From the IMG/VR virus record IMGVR_UViG_2675903352_000015, positions 1-14,377 of that record: a stretch of DNA of 14,377 bases; one strand, written 5' to 3'. The notes beneath the pieces are model-generated. The model was not told where the DNA came from. It searched no databases and saw nothing but the letters and a program-made list of their open reading frames with translations. The position numbers were made by a program, and so were the translations under genes. Source of the DNA: a virus (Duplodnaviria; Heunggongvirae; Uroviricota; Caudoviricetes). Shown here in pieces: positions 1,166 through 13,389 of this stretch; the stretch's first letter is position 1; each line of letters starts with the position of its first letter.

Positions 1166-1423
1166 ATGCGTACAACCCAACAATTCAGCATTACATTAAC
1201 TAACGAGATGGCTGACATGGTGCGCGCCCGTGTGGCTTCCGGTGCCTATGCTTCAGAAAGTGAGGTCATTCGTGAAGGGCTTCGCGCACTGAATGAGCGC
1301 GATAAAGCAATCGAAGAGTGGTTAACGCATTCAGTCGCCCCCTCTCTTGATTCTATCCGCGAAAATCCAAGCAACGGACGCTCCATTTCACAGGTTCGCG
1401 CCGCGATTCGATCCGGAAAGTAA
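1166..1423 (+). CDS. parD: ParD-family antitoxin (ribbon-helix-helix)
   Basis: 85-aa product from ATG 1166 (GAGG 7 nt upstream); sequence ...MADMVRARVASGAYASESEVIREGLRALNERDKAIEEWL is typical of RHH ParD antitoxins; immediately followed by a ParE-like gene. The ORF-track start at 1103 is an unlikely N-terminal extension. Confidence 0.8.
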   Translation: MRTTQQFSITLTNEMADMVRARVASGAYASESEVIREGLRALNERDKAIEEWLTHSVAPSLDSIRENPSNGRSISQVRAAIRSGK

Positions 1424-1428
1424 TCTGC

Positions 1429-1740
1429 ATGACATATGAAGTCATCATTACTCCTGAGGCCGAACAACAAATAATCAACATGCACAGATATATAACTGAG
1501 AAAGCAGGGAACGTCATTGCTGACAATTATGCCAATGCACTTCTTGATTATCTTGATGGGTTTTCTACATTCCCGCATCGGGGCAATAAACGCGATGATA
1601 TTCGCCAGGGGATGCGGGTAACTCATTTCCGCCACAGAACGATTATTGCTTTTGCCGTTGATGACAATAAAGTTTTTATCGCAGGCGTATACCACGGTGG
1701 GCAAATCTATGAAACCGATTTTTTATCCAGTGCACCGTAA
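1429..1740 (+). CDS. parE: ParE/RelE-family toxin
   Basis: 103 aa; starts 5 nt after the parD stop; C-terminal part (THFRHRTIIAFAVDDNKVFIAGVYHGGQ) matches the ParE/RelE fold pattern; canonical antitoxin-then-toxin order. Confidence 0.8.
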   Translation: MTYEVIITPEAEQQIINMHRYITEKAGNVIADNYANALLDYLDGFSTFPHRGNKRDDIRQGMRVTHFRHRTIIAFAVDDNKVFIAGVYHGGQIYETDFLSSAP

Positions 1741-1780
1741 AACCCCCATCCTTCAGGGCGTGGCGGATATCAAACTTTGT

Positions 1781-2863
1781 TCATTTTCTCTGGCTGATCT
1801 TTACCGGATAACCATCCCGAAGATCAATTAAGTGCTCCGGTTCAGAAGCAAACCATGCATAAGATCCCCACGCCAATTCTGGTATTGCCTTTTTAAAAGG
1901 CAGAGCACTTCTGTCAATAAATGCCGTAAGGAATGCAAGATTTTTCTCGCTGAACCCAGCGTCAATAGCCAAATGAGTGAGAGTAACTTTTCGTTCCCTG
2001 TTTATAGGCCCATCTGTCGCAACTACCTCAGTGAAAACTACAAGCATATCCGAACCCGTTCGGTCCTCTCCCAAATCAATCAAAATAATATCTGGAAGTG
2101 CTTTTGAGGCATCAATATTCAGCCCCAATGCTTTTGCCAATACATCATCCTGAGCAACAACTTTATTCCCAGATTCAGACAACCAGAGCACAGTTGGATT
2201 CTTAAGAAAATTAGGAGCAAAAACTTCGATGACGGCCTTAGCTATTGTACTTGACGGGCCCGGAGCTAAAGTTCTCTTCTCTCCATTTGGGAAAGTGACG
2301 ACTACGGCATCAGCAGCAATCACTGCCCCTGATTTCAATAAACGCAATCTAGCAAGAGCGGCTTTGTTCAAATGATTTTCCTGCCAGGAACTTATTGCAC
2401 TCAGCAGCGAATCTCCTTCAAGCCCAGCATCAAAGAGTGCTGCAAAAGAGCGATTCAAACTGTAACGAGGATGAGAGGATGTGGTGGGTATACCTTTACG
2501 CTCAACAATTGCATTGCAAGGTATTAGGCCATTTTTTATAGTTTCATCACGTATTGGCTCACGCGTATTTTCCGCATACCATGCATCAGCAGGCCTTATC
2601 TTTTGTTTAGAGAAAGTCATCTTTACCCAACTTTCTCTGGACGCATCATCAGTAAGAGCAGCCTGTGAATCTCCCATACTTACAACCTGGCTGGGCCTTA
2701 TCCATCGCCCCAGCCCCTCAACCGCACCAGCATAAAACATGACAAAAATTGTTTTTGCAGCTATTTCCCGAATTAAATATCCACGATTCTCAGTCCCTTC
2801 AGGGAAAATTAATGGTAATCTTTCCCGGATAACATTCAATGGGGGAACAACAGGCAGATTCAT
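1781..2863 (-). CDS. putative type II restriction endonuclease (resembles BsuBI/PstI family, from memory)
   Basis: 360-aa ORF directly downstream of the methyltransferase on the same strand, with ATGA start/stop overlap at 2860..2863; AT-rich composition; size and context match REases paired with Eco57I/PstI-type methyltransferases. Family assignment is from recollection only. Confidence 0.6.
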   Translation of the reverse strand: MNLPVVPPLNVIRERLPLIFPEGTENRGYLIREIAAKTIFVMFYAGAVEGLGRWIRPSQVVSMGDSQAALTDDASRESWVKMTFSKQKIRPADAWYAENTREPIRDETIKNGLIPCNAIVERKGIPTTSSHPRYSLNRSFAALFDAGLEGDSLLSAISSWQENHLNKAALARLRLLKSGAVIAADAVVVTFPNGEKRTLAPGPSSTIAKAVIEVFAPNFLKNPTVLWLSESGNKVVAQDDVLAKALGLNIDASKALPDIILIDLGEDRTGSDMLVVFTEVVATDGPINRERKVTLTHLAIDAGFSEKNLAFLTAFIDRSALPFKKAIPELAWGSYAWFASEPEHLIDLRDGYPVKISQRK

Positions 2864-4692
2864 GCAATCATCACTCCATAGAAACCAGCGATAGTTCTCT
2901 CAATAATCCGTCTGTGGACGCCGGCATCAATTAACGATTGAATCTCCATCACCTGCTCCAGAGAAGGCAACGGGATTGAATTCAATTCATAGGCCGAAAC
3001 AGCAACACTTCCGCTTATACACCTGAACGCCCGATCGACAACATGCGAATTAAGTAGCATATCAATAACATCAGGGCGAACCGCAGAGAACAATCCGTTT
3101 GAATACACAATATTAATATGGTTTTCAACTACTACGCCACCAGTTTCATCTATAAATCCCTGAGGTAAAATCGCAGCTAAAATCCTTCTGTCCTGCTCCT
3201 TCGATGTTGTCCGCTGAACAAGCACACATTCAGATTTTGTCACAAGGAAACCCTGTTGTGGGGTTATATCGATATAGGGAACATGATTTTTTCTGTCTGC
3301 GCTAAAACGGAAACCAGCTGAAGTTATTGATTCCGCCCAGACTAATGGATAGCTATTTTTTCCTTTCGTCGTACGCAACTGCGACTTAAATCGATTCCAG
3401 ACTAACTGACCTGTAGAGACTGAGTATCCCAGATCAGCTAAACGCGTAGACATCTGTTTTAATACATTAAGAAAACAAGCATCATCTTTAACTCGTGGCA
3501 AAAGCCACGTTGCTCCACCTTTTTCTATATCAACATTACCTATTTTCTCAATTTTTGCTTTGTTCAACCCCTTAGGGACAAGTGAGGATACCTGGGCCCG
3601 AACTTTATGTTCTCCCGCCTTGAATGCTGTCAACATTGTTTCCTGGAGAACATCGTCAAAGACCCCATCCCTGTCAGCGACGAAATCAAGGGCATACGGA
3701 GTAGTTTTTTCGGTCAAAAGGGTTCGCAGCGCGGTGAAATACTGCCCACCAAGAAAAGAAGTTGGCGTAAGAAATGCAATAACTCCTGTTTTCTCTTTAA
3801 CCATGCGAACAGCTAAGTCGGTGAACAATCCATATAGATTTGCATGACCAAATAACGAACGAGAATATTTTTCTCTCGTTTTAATATCGAGAGTGACACG
3901 TCCGTAAGGCGGATTCCCTACCACAAGATCATAACCAGAAATTTTATCTTGCTGAAGCGCATCAGCAACAATAATTGTATCTTCAGGCAATCTACGTTTT
4001 ACCTTTACACATAGTGGCATTAGTACAGATTCGAGCAATACCAAACTCATCCAAGCCGCAAATGGATCGATTTCTATCCCCTTTAAACGACGACTGATTC
4101 TCCTCAACATCCATTCAGGGGAAGACCCCTTGTCTTTTTTTAACATTCGAATGGCTACTGGTGCCAAAAATGCACCGCCACCACACGCAGGATCAATAAC
4201 CGATGCATGAGAAAAATCAACACCAGACTTTTCAGCCAGGTCCAAGAGACGCGCTACCAAAGGTGGGGGGGTATAGTAAGCCCCCAATTCCGAACGGTAA
4301 GCGGATGGCAGCATTACCGTATAAATTGACCCAATCAGATATCCAGCGTCCTCCGCCGGAAATTGAGCAATAAGCTCACCTGTTCGTTCAGCGAGCTCGC
4401 GTGCATCACATGGAATGTCTTCTATGTAAACAGTGTGCGGTACTGCCCTCATTTTAATGCTGCTTTTTTGCTTTTTTGCAAGGGTATCCCAATATGCAGC
4501 TACGATGCTGAAGCAGTATGAGCGGGCATGCATCAACCTTGACTGCCCGGTTTTGTAATTGCCCGCATAACCTTTGGCCATGGCTTTACAAGTTTGATAT
4601 CTTTCCAGATTAGAAAACTCATTATCTGTAAAAAAATCAAAATGTTGCACATTCATAATGTAAAATCCTAATGTATCAAACATGCGGGCCAT
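2860..4692 (-). CDS. gamma-class N6-adenine DNA methyltransferase (Eco57I/PstI-like modification subunit)
   Basis: 610 aa; motif X GAYYTPP, motif I DPACGGGAFL (SAM binding), motif IV NPPYGRV in gamma-class order. Start choice is uncertain (ATG 4692 with weak SD; internal ATG at MNVQHF has an AGGA upstream). Confidence 0.85.
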   Translation of the reverse strand: MARMFDTLGFYIMNVQHFDFFTDNEFSNLERYQTCKAMAKGYAGNYKTGQSRLMHARSYCFSIVAAYWDTLAKKQKSSIKMRAVPHTVYIEDIPCDARELAERTGELIAQFPAEDAGYLIGSIYTVMLPSAYRSELGAYYTPPPLVARLLDLAEKSGVDFSHASVIDPACGGGAFLAPVAIRMLKKDKGSSPEWMLRRISRRLKGIEIDPFAAWMSLVLLESVLMPLCVKVKRRLPEDTIIVADALQQDKISGYDLVVGNPPYGRVTLDIKTREKYSRSLFGHANLYGLFTDLAVRMVKEKTGVIAFLTPTSFLGGQYFTALRTLLTEKTTPYALDFVADRDGVFDDVLQETMLTAFKAGEHKVRAQVSSLVPKGLNKAKIEKIGNVDIEKGGATWLLPRVKDDACFLNVLKQMSTRLADLGYSVSTGQLVWNRFKSQLRTTKGKNSYPLVWAESITSAGFRFSADRKNHVPYIDITPQQGFLVTKSECVLVQRTTSKEQDRRILAAILPQGFIDETGGVVVENHINIVYSNGLFSAVRPDVIDMLLNSHVVDRAFRCISGSVAVSAYELNSIPLPSLEQVMEIQSLIDAGVHRRIIERTIAGFYGVMIA

Positions 4693-4751
4693 AACATCTC
4701 ATGGTGGCGCATAGCAAACTGGCCCGAAGAATATCACGCACCAAGTCGATC

Positions 4752-4767
4752 TCATAACCCGTTATGA
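4752..4767. promoter_or_regulatory. 16-bp palindrome TCATAACCCGTTATGA upstream of the restriction-modification operon
   Basis: Perfect inverted repeat CATAAC-cc-GTTATG (4753..4766, extendable by one base each side), about 60-75 bp upstream of the methyltransferase start in a 214-bp AT-rich intergenic region; position fits an operator. Confidence 0.3.
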
Positions 4768-4906
4768 CAATAAATCTTTGTAGCTGAACTCACTTGGTGA
4801 TTTGTCAATCATTCCTGGCCTCCAGTTCGTCCTGAATCTCTTTATCGAGTTCACCGTATTTGTTAGTCCTCATCACTCACGACTTGACTTCCAGAAATAA
4901 CCTTGA

Positions 4907-5263
4907 TTATTCGGGGCTATATTTTGTCACCCTGCGTATCCGCGCTTTCGCATTACGCTCAATCTGGATTAGCTTTTCTATATTTTTTCGCCTTTCCCGC
5001 TCCTCCTGGCGCAAGAGCCTTACATCATCTGCCAGTCTGGTTTCTCTTTTCGCCACAGAGAGCATCCAGTCAAATGGCTCCACAACTGCACCGCAGATTT
5101 TACAGCGGACCTGACGCTCTTTTTCGTCAACCCGGACAGAAGCGTGATGGCAATATGGTCTTTCCGATGGCTCATAAAGAAAATTAACCTGATTACGAGG
5201 GTTATCCTCTTTTACCGGAAATAAAACAATATTGCTTAACTCATCTTCTGGTTTTATTTCCAT
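4907..5263 (-). CDS. hypothetical protein with putative zinc ribbon (C-H-H ... C-x2-C) and basic C-terminus
   Basis: 118 aa from ATG 5263..5261, preceded by AAGGAGAGGAGC on the minus strand. The ORF-track start (GTG 5320) directly abuts the upstream stop and lacks an SD. Motif YCHHASVRVDEKERQVRCKICG. No family recognised. Confidence 0.5.
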   Translation of the reverse strand: MEIKPEDELSNIVLFPVKEDNPRNQVNFLYEPSERPYCHHASVRVDEKERQVRCKICGAVVEPFDWMLSVAKRETRLADDVRLLRQEERERRKNIEKLIQIERNAKARIRRVTKYSPE

Positions 5264-5320
5264 GCTCCTCTCCTTTGATGCGAATGCCAGCGGTAATTGA
5301 AGCCTGATAGCTAATTTCAC

Positions 5321-8945: not shown

Positions 8946-9353
8946 ATGGAATTTAAAGATTTACCAAAAGAAATCCAGACAATTGCTGCAACGACTCTCG
9001 GTGATAGTCTGGTGAAAATTGACCCGGCATACACCAAAAAAGAAACCATCGATAATATGGTTCGTAATGTGCGCAATGCTTTTTCTGGGCTATATGGTTC
9101 TGATAATCAAAAGCAGGAAAGCGATGTTAATAAACGGGTAATTTCTGTTTGCGTGAATGGCCATGTTCTTTCATCAATCAAAACAGAAACGGCGACAGTC
9201 TTCGATTGCCTTTGCATTGTACAGAGCCTTGTTGATGCCCTGTTTCGTTCAGTGAATTTAGAAAATGATGCAAATCTGCGAGGGCGCACAATAGCACATC
9301 CATATGCACATACTTTAGGCTCTGTGGATATCAAAGATCCCACAAATCTTTAA
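8946..9353 (+). CDS. hypothetical protein (135 aa) in an AT-rich accessory insert
   Basis: ATG 8946 with GAGG 8 nt upstream; visibly AT-richer than flanking prophage genes; no transmembrane segment or known motif recognised. Confidence 0.55.
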   Translation: MEFKDLPKEIQTIAATTLGDSLVKIDPAYTKKETIDNMVRNVRNAFSGLYGSDNQKQESDVNKRVISVCVNGHVLSSIKTETATVFDCLCIVQSLVDALFRSVNLENDANLRGRTIAHPYAHTLGSVDIKDPTNL

Positions 9354-9564
9354 TGAAATAGTTAACGCGAATTGTACTTGCTCTTTCAGTTGCTTTCAGA
9401 ATACGCGTTGAAACTGCTGGCGGTAATTTGGTATTCCATTTATTAAAATCATGCCCGGGAAAGTACTCTTCGAAAATACTTTTAACTGCAGACTCGCCTA
9501 TTGAAATGCTGCTTACCATGCGATTTTGATAAAGGCATTTAGCAATAAGAGTTGATTTTAACAT
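9331..9564 (-). CDS. hypothetical protein (77 aa), convergent with and overlapping the 3' end of the 135-aa gene
   Basis: ATG 9564..9562 preceded by AGGAGG (spacer GTGA) on the minus strand; AT-rich; 3' end overlaps the convergent gene by 23 bp. Confidence 0.45.
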   Translation of the reverse strand: MLKSTLIAKCLYQNRMVSSISIGESAVKSIFEEYFPGHDFNKWNTKLPPAVSTRILKATERASTIRVNYFIKDLWDL

Positions 9565-10590: not shown

Positions 10591-13071
10591 ATGAGTAAAG
10601 TCTTTATTTGCGCCGCCATTCCGGACGAACAGGCAACAGCAGAAGGCGCCAAACCTGTGGCCACTGCCATTGAAGCAGGCGACGAACGCCGGGCAAGAGC
10701 CAAATTTAGCTGGTTATTTCTGGAACAATACCCGGAAGCTCAGGACTGTGCTTATAAATTTCTTGTCTGCGAGGATAAACCCGGCATGGCCCGCCCTGCT
10801 CTCGATTCCTGGGATTCCGAATATATGCAGGAAAACCGCTGGAATGAGGAGTCGGCTTCCTTTGTTCCGGTCGACCCTGAACCGGACGCAGAAATTGTTA
10901 ACTTTAATCAGTTATCTGACGACAAGCGGGCTGCTGTCCTTGTCAGGTTCGGTACACATGAAAACATCACCGTGGATATGGTCATCAATGCAAGCGGGCT
11001 TCTCGGCGATGACGAGATGACGACTTTTGATGGACACCTCGCTGAAGCAATTATCCGGACCAGAGAAATTAACGCCATGTATCCAGAGCGTCAGATTGAG
11101 TACATCAACGATGCCAGACGTGATTTAAAACCAACAGCCAAATGGCCCGACGTTCAGGCGTATTTTCTCGAACGTAAAAAACGCATGGAAAAGGAGCGCA
11201 AAGAAGGTGGCGCATATAATTCCGTCGTCGATCTTGCCCGCGCCAGAGTCAACCGGCAAGGCACTGAAAACTCTGCAGGAAAAACTGACTCCGTAACTGC
11301 TGTCATTCGTCGCGAATACAGGCAGACATGGAAAACACTGGATGAAGAACTGGCCTACGCTTTCTGGCCTGGTGATATTGATGCCGGAAACATTGACGGC
11401 AGCATCCATCGCTGGGCAAAAAATGAAGTTATCGACAAAGATCGCGAAGACTGGAAGCGTATTTCCGCATCAATGCGCAAACAACCTGATGCCGTTCGCT
11501 ACGACCGTCAGACTATTTTTGGCCTTGTCCGTGAGCGTCCGATCGACATTCACAAAGATCCCGTGGCGCTGAACAAATACATCACTGAATACCTGGCGAC
11601 AAAGGGCGTGTTTGAGGATGAAGAAACAGACCAGAGCACTGCTGATATTCTCCAGCCGTCAGCAGCACAAACTGATGCAGTGGAAACTGAAGTATCTGAT
11701 ACCCAAAAAAATGAAAGCGCGCTGGAAACTGAACCATCTGTAGAGCGTGAGGGGCCGTTCTACTTCCTCTTCACCGATAAGGATGGCGAAAAATATGGTC
11801 GTGCAAACAAACTTTCTGGTCTGAATAAGGCGCTGGCTGCAGGGGCTACTGAAATCACGAAAGAAGAATATTTTGCCCGTAAAAACGGCACGTACTCAGG
11901 TTCACAACAAAATACTGGTGCATCTGACACGACCGCACAACCAGAGCCGGTAAAAGTTACCGCTGACGAAGTAAACAAAATTATGCAGGCAGCCAATATC
12001 AGCCAGCCTGACGCCGATAAGTTGCTTGCTGCCTCTCGCGGAGAATTTGTTGCAGGGATTAGCGACCCGAATGATCCGAAATGGGTGAAGGGGATTGAAA
12101 CCCGCGATTCTGTAAACCAGAACCAGCAAGAATCGGAACAGAACGACCAGAAAGCGGAACAAAACAGTCAAAATGCGTTACAAAACGAGCCAGAAACGAA
12201 ACAACCTGAGGCAGTAGCGCAACAGGAACCGGAAAAAGTCTGCACCGCCTGCGGTCAGAGCGGTGGCGGCAACTGCCCTGATTGTGGCGCGGTGATGGGC
12301 GACGCAACATACCAGGAAACATTCGATGAAGAGAATCAGGTTGAAGTTCAGGAAAATGATCCGGAGGAAATGGAAGGCGCTGAACATCCACACAAGGAGA
12401 ATGCTGGCAGCGCTCAGGACCACGCCAGCGATAATGAAACTGGTGAGACGGCAGATCCCTTAATTGTGGTGAACGGTCATCACGTTATCACATCCACCAG
12501 CAGAGTGTGGTACCACCTGATGATCGACCTTGAAACAATGGGAACCAACACCAATGCGCCCATCGTGGTTATTGGTGCGGTTTTCTTCGACCCACAAACA
12601 GGGGAAATCGGGCCAGTATTTTATATCGTTATCAGTCTGACTGACGCAATGAATACAGGGGCTGCTCCTGACGGTGGAACCATCAAATGGTGGCTGAAGC
12701 AGTCCAGTGAAGCCAGAGCTGCCATTTTAACAGACCAGGTAAAACTGAAGGATGCCCTTTCGCGGTTTCGGGAGTTCATCAACGAATACTCAGATGAAAA
12801 ATTCGTTCAGGTATGGGGTAATGGTGCAACTTTCGATAACGCAATTTTGCGCACCTCATACGAACGTCTGGACATCCCCTGCCCGTGGCGCTACCACAAC
12901 GATCGCGATGTACGCACAATCGTTGAGCTGGGAAAAACAATCGACTTTGATGCTAGAACCGTTATTCCATTCGAAGGCGTTCGCCACAATGCACTGGATG
13001 ACGCCCGTCACCAGGCAAAATACGTTTCAGCAATCTGGCAAAAACTGATCCCGAATCCGGTTGATTTTTAA
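10591..13071 (+). CDS. RecE-like prophage exonuclease: RecE-type N-terminal/central region and Cys4 zinc ribbon fused to a DnaQ-like DEDDh 3'-5' exonuclease domain
   Basis: 826 aa; GAGGT 8 nt upstream. Segment DKLLAASRGEFVAGISDPNDPKWVKGI...CTACGQSGGGNCPDCGAVMGDATYQETFDEE closely matches Rac RecE as I recall it. C-terminus has DEDDh motifs: MIDLETMG (D646, E648), WGNGATFDNAIL (D749), HNALDDARH (H799, D803/D804). Confidence 0.8.
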   Translation: MSKVFICAAIPDEQATAEGAKPVATAIEAGDERRARAKFSWLFLEQYPEAQDCAYKFLVCEDKPGMARPALDSWDSEYMQENRWNEESASFVPVDPEPDAEIVNFNQLSDDKRAAVLVRFGTHENITVDMVINASGLLGDDEMTTFDGHLAEAIIRTREINAMYPERQIEYINDARRDLKPTAKWPDVQAYFLERKKRMEKERKEGGAYNSVVDLARARVNRQGTENSAGKTDSVTAVIRREYRQTWKTLDEELAYAFWPGDIDAGNIDGSIHRWAKNEVIDKDREDWKRISASMRKQPDAVRYDRQTIFGLVRERPIDIHKDPVALNKYITEYLATKGVFEDEETDQSTADILQPSAAQTDAVETEVSDTQKNESALETEPSVEREGPFYFLFTDKDGEKYGRANKLSGLNKALAAGATEITKEEYFARKNGTYSGSQQNTGASDTTAQPEPVKVTADEVNKIMQAANISQPDADKLLAASRGEFVAGISDPNDPKWVKGIETRDSVNQNQQESEQNDQKAEQNSQNALQNEPETKQPEAVAQQEPEKVCTACGQSGGGNCPDCGAVMGDATYQETFDEENQVEVQENDPEEMEGAEHPHKENAGSAQDHASDNETGETADPLIVVNGHHVITSTSRVWYHLMIDLETMGTNTNAPIVVIGAVFFDPQTGEIGPVFYIVISLTDAMNTGAAPDGGTIKWWLKQSSEARAAILTDQVKLKDALSRFREFINEYSDEKFVQVWGNGATFDNAILRTSYERLDIPCPWRYHNDRDVRTIVELGKTIDFDARTVIPFEGVRHNALDDARHQAKYVSAIWQKLIPNPVDF

Positions 13072-13137: not shown

Positions 13138-13389
13138 ATGTACGAATTAACTCTATCGCCAGCAGAGATTCAAGAGATCACGAAATACGAGCGATACACA
13201 AAACAGCAACACCAGTTAAGGCTGCACGGTATCCCATTTGTAATCGGTCCTAAAAACGAACCAATAGTTCTTCGCAGGGATATTCCACACGGACTGACTA
13301 CGATGCCAAAAGCACCTGAACTAGTTTCCGCTGAACCCGATTTTGAGGCGCTGAACAATGGGAAGACCAAGAAAAAACAAAAAAGATAA
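13138..13389 (+). CDS. xis: excisionase (lambda Xis-like)
   Basis: 83 aa; N-terminus MYELTL and lysine-rich C-terminus NNGKTKKKQKR resemble lambda Xis (MYLTL...NGKKAKS) from memory; overlaps the integrase start by 32 bp as in lambda. Confidence 0.55.
   Translation: MYELTLSPAEIQEITKYERYTKQQHQLRLHGIPFVIGPKNEPIVLRRDIPHGLTTMPKAPELVSAEPDFEALNNGKTKKKQKR

Follow-up and report, generated by a model that had tools for sequence, protein, structure and literature searches.

PstI and BsuBI (CTGCAG) are the enzymes after which the Pfam families PF06616 and PF17728 are named; the PstI genes are divergently transcribed and the PstI and BsuBI methyltransferases are about 500 aa in length. SdaI (CCTGCAGG) provides the only solved structure (PDB 2ixs) that matches the endonuclease described here. 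EcoGIII, a prophage-borne BsuBI/PstI system of Stx2a phages, was found to be active and to methylate CTGCAG (PMC3893438). Gene pairs of the same subfamily as the one described here are found in SGI1-related islands (AGI1 A025-A026 and relatives; PMC9035990), with a methyltransferase about 59-60% identical to the present one, and P2-like prophage hotspots are known to harbour anti-phage systems (Rousset et al. 2022, PMC9122126).

In the window, i.e. the whole stretch of 14,377 nucleotides that was analysed, an intact, ordinary type II restriction-modification system was found, in which an adenine methyltransferase gene is followed by a PstI/BsuBI-family endonuclease gene. The pair is carried by a lambdoid E. 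coli prophage as swappable cargo, and it is very probably a functional type II (IIP-like) module held as accessory cargo among the early-right genes, with the replication genes on one side and the DUF968/RusA/Q genes on the other. The first-pass annotation had proposed a type II restriction-modification operon inside a prophage region, and the proposal was borne out by the domain matches, the paired genes and the prophage gene neighbours, the surrounding genes being integrase, excisionase, exonuclease, cI/cro/YdaT, replication, ParDE, DUF968, RusA and Q. The features of the locus were as follows:

1727-4902, no strand: segment carried as cargo, by comparison with E. coli prophages that do not contain the system (blastn, L019 and L020)
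1781-2863, minus strand: BsuBI/PstI-family restriction endonuclease gene, 360 aa (Pfam, PADLOC and SdaI matches)
2006-2098, minus strand: endonuclease catalytic core, P257-D258 ... E279-V-V followed by G285-P (family invariants)
2860-2863, minus strand: ATGA overlap, in which the methyltransferase stop TGA and the endonuclease start ATG share bases (read from the sequence)
2860-4656, minus strand: gamma-class N6-adenine DNA methyltransferase gene, 598 aa from the likeliest start, M13 of the longest ORF
4657-4692, minus strand: 12 further in-frame codons at the upstream end of the longest ORF, probably untranslated (1-nt indel in relatives)
4657-4823, minus strand: leader travelling with the module (homologous at the nucleotide level to the prophage modules of Kluyvera and Klebsiella)
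4728-4736, minus strand: extended -10-like promoter element TGATATTCT, 71 nt upstream of the methyltransferase start (leader comparison)
4752-4767, no strand: imperfect palindrome, TCATAAC and GTTATGA about a CC centre, with its promoter-proximal arm overlapping the -35 zone of the putative promoter

The endonuclease was found to contain an N-terminal HTH-type recognition domain followed by a C-terminal PD-(D/E)XK-type catalytic domain. Both of the Pfam domains named after PstI and BsuBI were present, PF17728 (2e-30, 105.8 bits) and PF06616 (1.5e-44, 151.5 bits), each above the gathering cut-off of 27 bits. The PADLOC model REase_II PDLC03589 (429 bits) far outscored all other REase_II models, none of which exceeded 96 bits, and the endonuclease is therefore placed in a subfamily distinct from PstI and BsuBI. 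A sequence match to SdaI was found (3e-16), which was also the sole significant PDB fold match. The earlier assignment of a PstI/BsuBI-like endonuclease was thus confirmed by the Pfam, PADLOC and SdaI matches, and profile searches of the downstream ORF gave clear BsuBI/PstI-family matches where a lack of homology had been allowed for.

The two-domain layout and a D...E-x-V...G-P...R core were common to SdaI and the window endonuclease, whereas the identity was about 26% over the aligned part, the window endonuclease extended about 40 aa further at its N-terminal end, and the Lys that follows E-x-x in SdaI was replaced by Ala. In an alignment of 15 family sequences, ten residues (R101, E102, R105, D258, E279, V281, G285, R291, R318 and P342) did not vary, and the window endonuclease contained every one of them. 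The invariance of D258, E279, V281, G285 and R291 extended to SdaI and the biochemically active EcoGIII-type enzyme, and R291 was located just downstream of the catalytic core (1991-1993). The structure model of the endonuclease was of low confidence (pLDDT 67) and no active-site geometry was drawn from it.

The Ala in place of the SdaI Lys, along with the frameshift of a related endonuclease gene in phage ArgO145, could be taken to mean that the endonuclease is inactive and that only the methyltransferase matters, as in a decaying system or a solitary methyltransferase. This is highly improbable, because the endonuclease ORF was intact in every copy examined, all ten family invariants were kept, and the codon differences from the Kluyvera homologue were 139 synonymous against 38 non-synonymous. 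The active EcoGIII-type enzyme contains Thr at the position after E-x-x, so Lys is not required by the family, and its loss was rejected as a sign of a dead nuclease. The methyltransferase gene showed the same kind of difference from its Kluyvera homologue (226 synonymous and 66 non-synonymous), and both genes were intact in three E. coli copies, in Kluyvera and in Klebsiella, with a large synonymous excess. As read from these sequences, purifying selection acts on both genes and every family-invariant residue is kept.

The longest methyltransferase ORF was 610 aa (2860-4692, minus strand). On the comparison of homologues the true start is most likely M13 at 4656, because the homologues were 598 aa in nearly all cases and the upstream ATG was out of frame, owing to a 1-nt indel, in the leaders of Kluyvera, Klebsiella and Citrobacter. 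An AGGA Shine-Dalgarno sequence was present at 4666-4669, 9 nt before the M13 ATG. With the start at M13 the leader is 250 bp long, and the intergenic length of 214 bp given earlier, which was based on the longest ORF, is replaced accordingly. The 598-aa protein contained motif X (GAYYTPPPLV, 4255-4284, residues 125-134), followed by motif I (DPACGGGAF, 4168-4194, residues 155-163), motif IV (NPPYG, 3901-3915, residues 248-252) and a C-terminal target-recognition region, and this order assigns it to the gamma class.

Matches of the methyltransferase to PF07669 (3.6e-13), PF02384 (6e-9) and, over the full length, the PADLOC model MTase_II PDLC03338 (994 bits) were found. In its AF2 model (pLDDT 87) five helices at the N terminus preceded a TaqI/CamA-like fold, for which Foldseek returned CamA, M.TaqI and M.BseCI at E-values of about 1e-18 to 1e-20, with a TM-score of 0.73-0.76 when normalised to M.TaqI. 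The first-pass reading of a gamma-class N6-adenine methyltransferase with motifs X-I-IV agreed with the motif order, the Pfam and PADLOC matches and the predicted M.TaqI-like fold.

The methyltransferase and endonuclease genes were adjacent, and their pairing was kept at every homologous locus examined. The methyltransferase-then-endonuclease order was found at all of these loci and the 4-nt overlap at all but two, with an identical overlap in Kluyvera, Klebsiella, Citrobacter, Serratia, Burkholderia, Enterobacter and Erwinia; a GGAG sequence was present 10 nt before the endonuclease ATG. The overlap at 2860-2863 had been said to ensure that modification is made before restriction. Its presence was upheld and it was found to be conserved across the subfamily, but the order of events was not, as the overlap couples the expression of both genes and creates no temporal delay.

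EcoGIII resembled the window system in its carrier, a lambdoid E. coli prophage (PMC3893438), in its content of a gamma-class m6A methyltransferase and a BsuBI/PstI-family endonuclease, and in its arrangement, with the methyltransferase gene followed by the endonuclease gene, a 4-nt overlap and no C protein. It differed in that both of its proteins were 26% identical to the window proteins, its endonuclease was 317 aa against 360 aa, and its methyltransferase was 489 aa, without the roughly 110-120 aa of N-terminal helices found in the window enzyme. EcoGIII was located directly downstream of cI (a rexAB-like position), whereas the window system was located between the replication genes and Q.

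The comparison of leaders revealed a TGnTATTCT element at 59-71 nt from the start codon in seven of the nine leaders, with the divergent leaders of Enterobacter, Erwinia and K. africana included, and TGATATAGG was found at 64 nt in the Serratia leader. A motif of the TGnTATTCT type is expected by chance in about 0.5-0.9% of shuffled 200-nt leaders. The element is probably the module's own promoter, to judge from its recurrence in the leaders. It was detected solely through the leader comparison; the generic sigma-70 promoter scan, which gave no minus-strand promoter in the leader, missed it because its -35 is poor. The terminator scan gave no intrinsic terminator downstream of the endonuclease gene, and no RNA family reached threshold in the Rfam scan of the window.

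No controller-sized ORF was found in the leader, where the largest ORF was 32 aa, which agreed with the earlier statement that a separate controller-protein gene is absent. The system stands apart from the C-protein-controlled class in this respect and also in the direct overlap of the endonuclease gene with the methyltransferase gene. The zinc-ribbon ORF at 4907-5320 (137 aa) was considered as a hidden regulator and was rejected, being a common prophage gene (1,680 E. coli genomes) that is unrelated to the genes upstream of the homologous modules.

The palindrome TCATAACCCGTTATGA at 4752-4767, for which an operator role had been suggested, does exist and contains 7-bp arms (the left at 4761-4767, the right at 4752-4758) and a 2-bp centre. 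An inverted repeat this strong (arms of at least 7, spacer of 0-4) was found in 5.6% of shuffled leaders, and five such repeats were present across the window, so that the palindrome, taken by itself, hardly exceeds chance. The exact dyad was confined to the window and the Kluyvera homologue, the leader of which is near-identical over the stretch; one mismatch was found in Klebsiella and a degenerate left arm in Citrobacter. The dyad was absent from the leaders of Serratia, Enterobacter, Erwinia, K. africana and Burkholderia, and the distant leaders kept only the arm nearest to the -10 element (the right arm, TATG.GA), in the -35 zone.

It was considered that the system regulates itself, with the N-terminal part of the methyltransferase (compare SsoII, EcoRII and MspI) or the HTH of the endonuclease binding at 4752-4767 in place of a C protein and thereby repressing or timing transcription. 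With its end 15 nt upstream of the conserved TGATATTCT, the palindrome covers the -35 zone, and the methyltransferase was found to contain an additional N-terminal region, conserved and about 120 aa long, that is missing from TaqI and EcoGIII. However, this region was an all-helical five-helix bundle, placed where HsdM-type methyltransferases contain their N-terminal helical domain, and the N-terminal 120 aa gave no HTH family match, which leaves an HTH in the methyltransferase N terminus unsupported. A loose TCA(Y)...(R)TGA symmetry was present at a similar place in the Enterobacter and K. africana leaders, but its spacing varied between lineages. With the loss of the dyad in the more distant relatives and a chance probability of about 6%, such an operator is quite improbable, and the expression of both genes would proceed without any controller protein.

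Under the preferred reading, both genes would form a single transcription unit served by the module's own weak promoter, with the extended -10 TGATATTCT and a poor -35, and additional read-through from the phage early-right operon would be expected on induction. Translation of the endonuclease would follow by coupling through the ATGA overlap, aided by the weak GGAG. The methyltransferase, predicted to be a monomeric TaqI/CamA-like gamma-class enzyme, would methylate adenine within a short target on the host and prophage DNA, and the SdaI/PstI-like endonuclease would cleave incoming DNA that does not bear the methyl mark. Such cleavage would shield the lysogen, and hence the prophage, from other phages and plasmids, with stabilisation of the prophage through post-segregational killing as a possible side effect. 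In carrier strains the module would be expected to shape phage and plasmid entry and to add an m6A motif to the methylome.

The target may be CTGCAG-like, by analogy with the other characterised family members. CTGCAG specificity, which had been implied by the first-pass annotation, cannot be assumed at 26% identity of both proteins to EcoGIII. The single CTGCAG site reported earlier (9486-9491) was corrected to three sites in the window, at 9486, 11273 and 11837; the site count in 14 kb is uninformative on the target, as had been said of the one site. A literature search for the specificity of the subfamily (BsuBI, ATGCAT, CTGCAG and methylomes) found nothing applicable. The ATGCAT methylation in Salmonella is the work of a different, solitary enzyme. 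The CTGCAG methylation found in the search belongs to EcoGIII (PMC3893438).

A further reading was considered, in which the widespread subfamily of 598-aa methyltransferases and 360-aa endonucleases has a target other than CTGCAG and also uses the conserved leader, instead of a C protein, to control its own establishment. The parts of this self-control might be the TATG.GA element and the promoter with the extended -10, perhaps joined by the additional helical domain at the methyltransferase N terminus. The combination is unlikely. A target other than CTGCAG, if true, would give the SdaI/PstI fold a new specificity, and self-control, if true, would mean a self-contained 3-kb cassette that is mobile among SGI1-type islands and phages of the lambdoid and P2-like types.

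The module was found to be 3.05 kb in length (1776-4823) and occupied the variable stretch that separates the replication genes of the lambdoid prophage from Q. Nucleotide homology was found from 1776 to 4815 with the Kluyvera prophage module and up to 4823 with the Klebsiella prophage module. Homology to the E. coli prophages without the system stopped at 1726 and restarted at 4903; in these prophages different genes occupied the slot, and in ECOR29 a different insert of 1.2 kb was present instead of the cargo segment. The module was found in 2 of 5,426 complete E. coli genomes, whereas the left flank was found in 328 E. coli genomes and the right flank in at least 557. No near-identical DNA was found in the phage and plasmid collections, where the only matches were distant, of the EcoGIII type, and in Stx phages. 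From this comparison the module appears to fit the description of accessory (moron-like) phage defence cargo, with a variable slot, its own putative promoter and absence from related prophages.

The subfamily contained 3,708 endonuclease and 3,797 methyltransferase matches, always paired, with about 598 aa for the methyltransferase and about 360 aa for the endonuclease. Homologous modules were found in the identical lambdoid-prophage slot in Kluyvera, Klebsiella, Citrobacter and Enterobacter, and in the P2-like gpA-portal hotspot in Serratia and Erwinia. In Serratia fonticola and Erwinia billingiae the homologues were about 66-70% identical and were located exactly between gpA and the portal gene, whereas the window copy was present in a lambdoid prophage and in a different variable slot. 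The SGI1-related pairs differed from the window system in their carrier, which is an integrative mobilisable island instead of a prophage, and in the lack of a free leader, since their methyltransferase and resolvase genes overlap; at the Vibrio mimicus locus the pair was found after the resolvase gene and before the helicase and endonuclease (Gabija-like) genes. Other homologous modules were located in defence islands, one of them adjoining Gabija in an SGI1-type island (PMC9035990). The module is a clean example of a compact, putative defence cassette of 3.05 kb, its own leader included, which is found repeatedly across Proteobacteria, both in genomic islands and in the variable slots of temperate phages of unrelated types. 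Its significance beyond cataloguing is small, as one more uncharacterised subfamily of PstI/SdaI-like enzymes.

The ParD/ParE genes adjoin the endonuclease gene in convergent orientation, and type II systems are established post-segregational killers. The module might accordingly be seen as mainly a selfish addiction or epigenetic element, which together with ParDE kills the cells that lose the prophage, or the methylation of which re-programmes host transcription, as reported for EcoGIII. Prophage-borne CTGCAG methylation alters the methylomes of EHEC strains (PMC3893438). This view is possible though somewhat unlikely, as copies of the module were found repeatedly in defence islands and in hotspots recognised as anti-phage, beside Gabija, SIR2 and McrA-like genes, and ParDE was found in at least 328 E. 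coli prophages without the restriction-modification system, so that the two are not linked. Moreover, the same enzymes serve both roles, and a defence function would be compatible with addiction.

The AT-rich composition had been taken as a sign of separate acquisition, and the acquisition itself was supported, the comparative evidence being stronger than the compositional evidence. The GC contrast was real, with 43.5% in the restriction-modification genes (GC3 0.34-0.37) against 52% leftward and 46.9% rightward, but it was not unique to them, since a low GC3 was also found in the ORF at 8946-9353 (0.32) and in parE (0.39).

The type II restriction-modification operon was found to be real and intact, as the first-pass annotation had rightly recognised, with Pfam and PADLOC matches for both genes and an SdaI match for the endonuclease. 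It carries little novelty and little surprise: the operon is already covered by defence-system profile libraries and is already named as such in RefSeq. The new points are a promoter-like conserved element, the exact limits of the module and its repeated occurrence in hotspots of lambdoid prophages, P2-like prophages and islands. Four earlier points were amended, namely where translation starts, how many CTGCAG sites there are, what the overlap implies and how the palindrome is read. The module contained the following features:

1781-2863, minus strand: downstream ORF, endonuclease, 360 aa
2860-4692, minus strand: upstream ORF, methyltransferase, 610 aa as the longest ORF
4728-4736: TGnTATTCT element of the leader

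The methyltransferase was found to match the Eco57I-type methylase (PF07669, 3.6e-13) and N6_Mtase (PF02384, 6e-9) families of Pfam, followed by weak matches to the Alw26I/Eco31I/Esp3I and PglX models of NCBIfam, and the PADLOC Type II methyltransferase model PDLC03338 (994 bits) spanned the entire protein. Motifs X (GAYYTPPPLV), I (DPACGGGAF) and IV (NPPYG) were present in this order followed by a long C-terminal region, and the X-I-IV order together with the N6-methylase matches upheld the proposed gamma-class N6-adenine methyltransferase. The AlphaFold model, built with an input of 30 homologues (pLDDT 87), began with five helices, after which came a fold with CamA, M.TaqI and M.BseCI, all monomeric gamma-class adenine methyltransferases, as the best PDB matches. 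Residues 1-120 were found to be conserved within the subfamily and absent from M.TaqI and from the methyltransferase of the EcoGIII type, the prophage-borne system of Stx2a phages. No HTH family matched these 120 residues; the alignments of 5ybb and 2okc began at chain residues 132-141, and the first 120 residues match the HsdM-type N-terminal helical domain by position.

Nearly all methyltransferase homologues were found to contain 598 aa, covering 98% of the 610-aa ORF. The upstream ATG was out of frame through a 1-nt indel in the leaders of Kluyvera, Klebsiella and Citrobacter, and an AGGA was located 9 nt ahead of the M13 ATG. These observations place the start most likely at M13 (4656), and the leader, previously taken as 214 bp, is accordingly revised to 250 bp.

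The endonuclease was found to contain both BsuBI/PstI domains of Pfam (PF17728, 2e-30; PF06616, 1.5e-44) and to match the PADLOC Type II endonuclease model (429 bits) and the SdaI structure 2ixs (3e-16), so that the PstI/BsuBI-like assignment was borne out by profile search. The AlphaFold model was weak (pLDDT 67), with SdaI as the sole significant PDB match. In an alignment of 15 family sequences, with identities as low as 23% and with SdaI and the EcoGIII-type enzyme of a Stx2a phage among them, R101, E102, R105, D258, E279, V281, G285, R291, R318 and P342 were invariant, and all ten were conserved in the window endonuclease. The residue after E-x-x was Lys in SdaI, Ala in the window endonuclease and Thr in the EcoGIII-type enzyme. 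A defect due to this Ala was ruled out, because the EcoGIII-type enzyme is reported to be biochemically active with Thr at that position (PMC3893438).

The ATGA overlap was read directly at 2860-2863, where the TGA stop of the methyltransferase and the ATG start of the endonuclease share bases (...GATTGCATGAATCTG...), and a GGAG was present 10 nt before the endonuclease start. The overlap had been said to ensure modification before restriction; such an order is not imposed by an overlap alone. Against Kluyvera, the methyltransferase codons contained 226 synonymous and 66 non-synonymous differences and the endonuclease codons 139 and 38, respectively. Intact copies of both genes were present in the window, Kluyvera, Klebsiella and two E. 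coli genomes, and the codon pattern indicates that selection maintains both.

The subfamily comprised 3,708 endonuclease and 3,797 methyltransferase matches (the endonucleases with E below 1e-30 formed 177 clusters at 50% identity) in Enterobacterales, Burkholderia, Cupriavidus, Pseudomonas, Vibrio and Aeromonas. The methyltransferase gene was first and the endonuclease gene second in every locus read, with a 4-nt overlap in all but two. The same slot, from the replication genes to DUF968/RusA, was occupied in lambdoid prophages of Kluyvera, Klebsiella, Citrobacter and Enterobacter. A few genes downstream of the module, between DUF968 and RusA, the lambdoid prophage of Enterobacter sp. P82 was also found to contain a 552-aa C5 cytosine DNA methylase (L021, 9122-10780) as a second, solitary methyltransferase of the variable region. 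The module was present in the gpA-portal slot of P2-like prophages, which we take to be the defence hotspot of Rousset et al. (PMC9122126), in Serratia fonticola and Erwinia billingiae, and in a mobile-element-like region in Burkholderia. In Vibrio mimicus (L017, 5414-12468; annotated overlap 41 nt, not 4) its neighbours were a resolvase gene and a Gabija-like pair of OLD nuclease and UvrD helicase, as has been described for SGI1-related elements (PMC9035990). In K. africana (L023) it was located in a chromosomal island near SIR2/ParA-like and ScoMcrA-HNH (McrA-like) genes, and both settings are typical of defence islands.

The window corresponds to the early part of a lambdoid prophage. It contained genes for a cI-like repressor, YdaS/cro-like and YdaT proteins, a replication organiser and DUF977, then a zinc-ribbon ORF, the restriction-modification pair, a convergent ParD/ParE and the first part of the DUF968/RusA/Q block. 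The restriction-modification genes share the orientation of the early-right operon. The other end contained:

10591-13071, plus strand: 826-aa protein with a C-terminal Rv2179c-like 3'-5' exonuclease domain (1.7e-69)
13138-13389: 83-aa ORF at the position where both E. coli matches have an annotated excisionase gene
window end: truncated integrase gene

The N-terminal part of the 826-aa protein, an exonuclease in the RefSeq annotation, is long, acidic and of low complexity; homologous prophages of Klebsiella and Citrobacter contained an Exonuc_VIII and Rv2179c-like protein in this position.

The 3.25-kb region was found by megablast in 2 of 5,426 complete E. coli genomes (identity 99.3-99.7%), both times in a prophage with the integrase gene adjoining potC, and no copy was found in the phage and plasmid collections searched. 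The flanks were common in E. coli (ParDE side, 328 genomes; zinc-ribbon side, at least 557). Nucleotide homology to the Kluyvera and Klebsiella prophages extended exactly from 1776 to 4815/4823, that is, the two genes and about 165 bp of leader with nothing downstream. In prophages without the module, homology to the window ended at 1726 and restarted at 4903, with other small genes filling the slot; this break is direct evidence of the separate acquisition proposed earlier, stronger than composition. The AT-rich contrast with the neighbours was real (module GC 43.5%, GC3 0.34-0.37; most neighbours GC3 0.44-0.52) but not unique to the module within the window. The lowest GC3 of the window (0.32) was found in a 135-aa ORF without Pfam match (8946-9353, plus strand) between the repressor region and dicB, which may represent a further AT-rich accessory gene of this prophage. 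The ParD/ParE toxin-antitoxin pair (1166-1740, plus strand) was convergent to the endonuclease gene and 40 bp from its stop codon. The homology end at 1726 lies within the 3' end of parE, and ParE of the window therefore contained 103 aa with a different C-terminal tail (99 aa elsewhere); recombination at this junction gave the toxin gene a new end.

The palindrome of the leader (4752-4767) contained arms of 7 bp and a centre of 2 bp; shuffled leaders gave inverted repeats equal or better in 5.6% of cases, and the window contained five. Its proposed role as an operator found no comparative support and is the less likely reading: when nine leaders of homologous modules were compared, the exact dyad was confined to the window and Kluyvera, followed by one mismatch in Klebsiella and a degenerate left arm in Citrobacter, and no such dyad was found in the remaining leaders. 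The nucleotides TGnTATTCT were conserved 59-71 nt before the start codon in seven of the nine, including the otherwise divergent leaders of Enterobacter, Erwinia and K. africana, and the Serratia leader contained TGATATAGG at 64 nt. With a chance occurrence of 0.5-0.9% per shuffled 200-nt leader, TGnTATTCT looks like a putative extended -10 promoter element. The palindrome's right arm, in the form TATG(A/T)GA, was kept 15 nt upstream of it in three lineages and would thus fall in the -35 zone of the putative promoter, which explains the partial conservation of the palindrome.

No controller-sized ORF was found in the leader, in agreement with the earlier statement that a separate controller gene is absent. 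The zinc-ribbon ORF directly upstream (4907-5320, minus strand) was not linked to the module. Its TFIIB-type zinc-ribbon match was weak, falling short of the cut-off at 2e-4, and its C-terminal tail is charged. The annotation gives a hypothetical protein of 118 aa; the ORF was present in 1,680 E. coli genomes, being widespread in E. coli prophages.

The module is most likely an ordinary type II restriction-modification system, in which the methyltransferase would methylate an adenine within a short target sequence of the resident DNA. The endonuclease, probably built like SdaI from an N-terminal recognition domain and a PD-(D/E)XK-type C-terminal domain, would cut incoming DNA without the mark. 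In the lysogen both genes would be driven by the module's own putative promoter and, after induction, also by read-through from the early-right operon, and the overlap, aided by the GGAG, would tie endonuclease translation to that of the methyltransferase. A defence role, with prophage stabilisation as a by-product, is suggested by the gene family and its recurrent placing in defence hotspots.

The targets of the characterised relatives PstI, BsuBI, EcoGIII and SdaI all contain CTGCAG. The window pair was only 26% identical to the EcoGIII-type pair and its subfamily has PADLOC models of its own, so a CTGCAG-like target may apply to it but is not to be assumed. The window contained three CTGCAG sites instead of the one counted previously, and the count is uninformative either way. 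In Stx2a phages (L003, 5824-6778; L004, 858-3277) the EcoGIII-type pair was located directly downstream of cI with a 4-nt overlap, and in phage ArgO145 (L003) its endonuclease gene was frameshifted and its methyltransferase gene intact.
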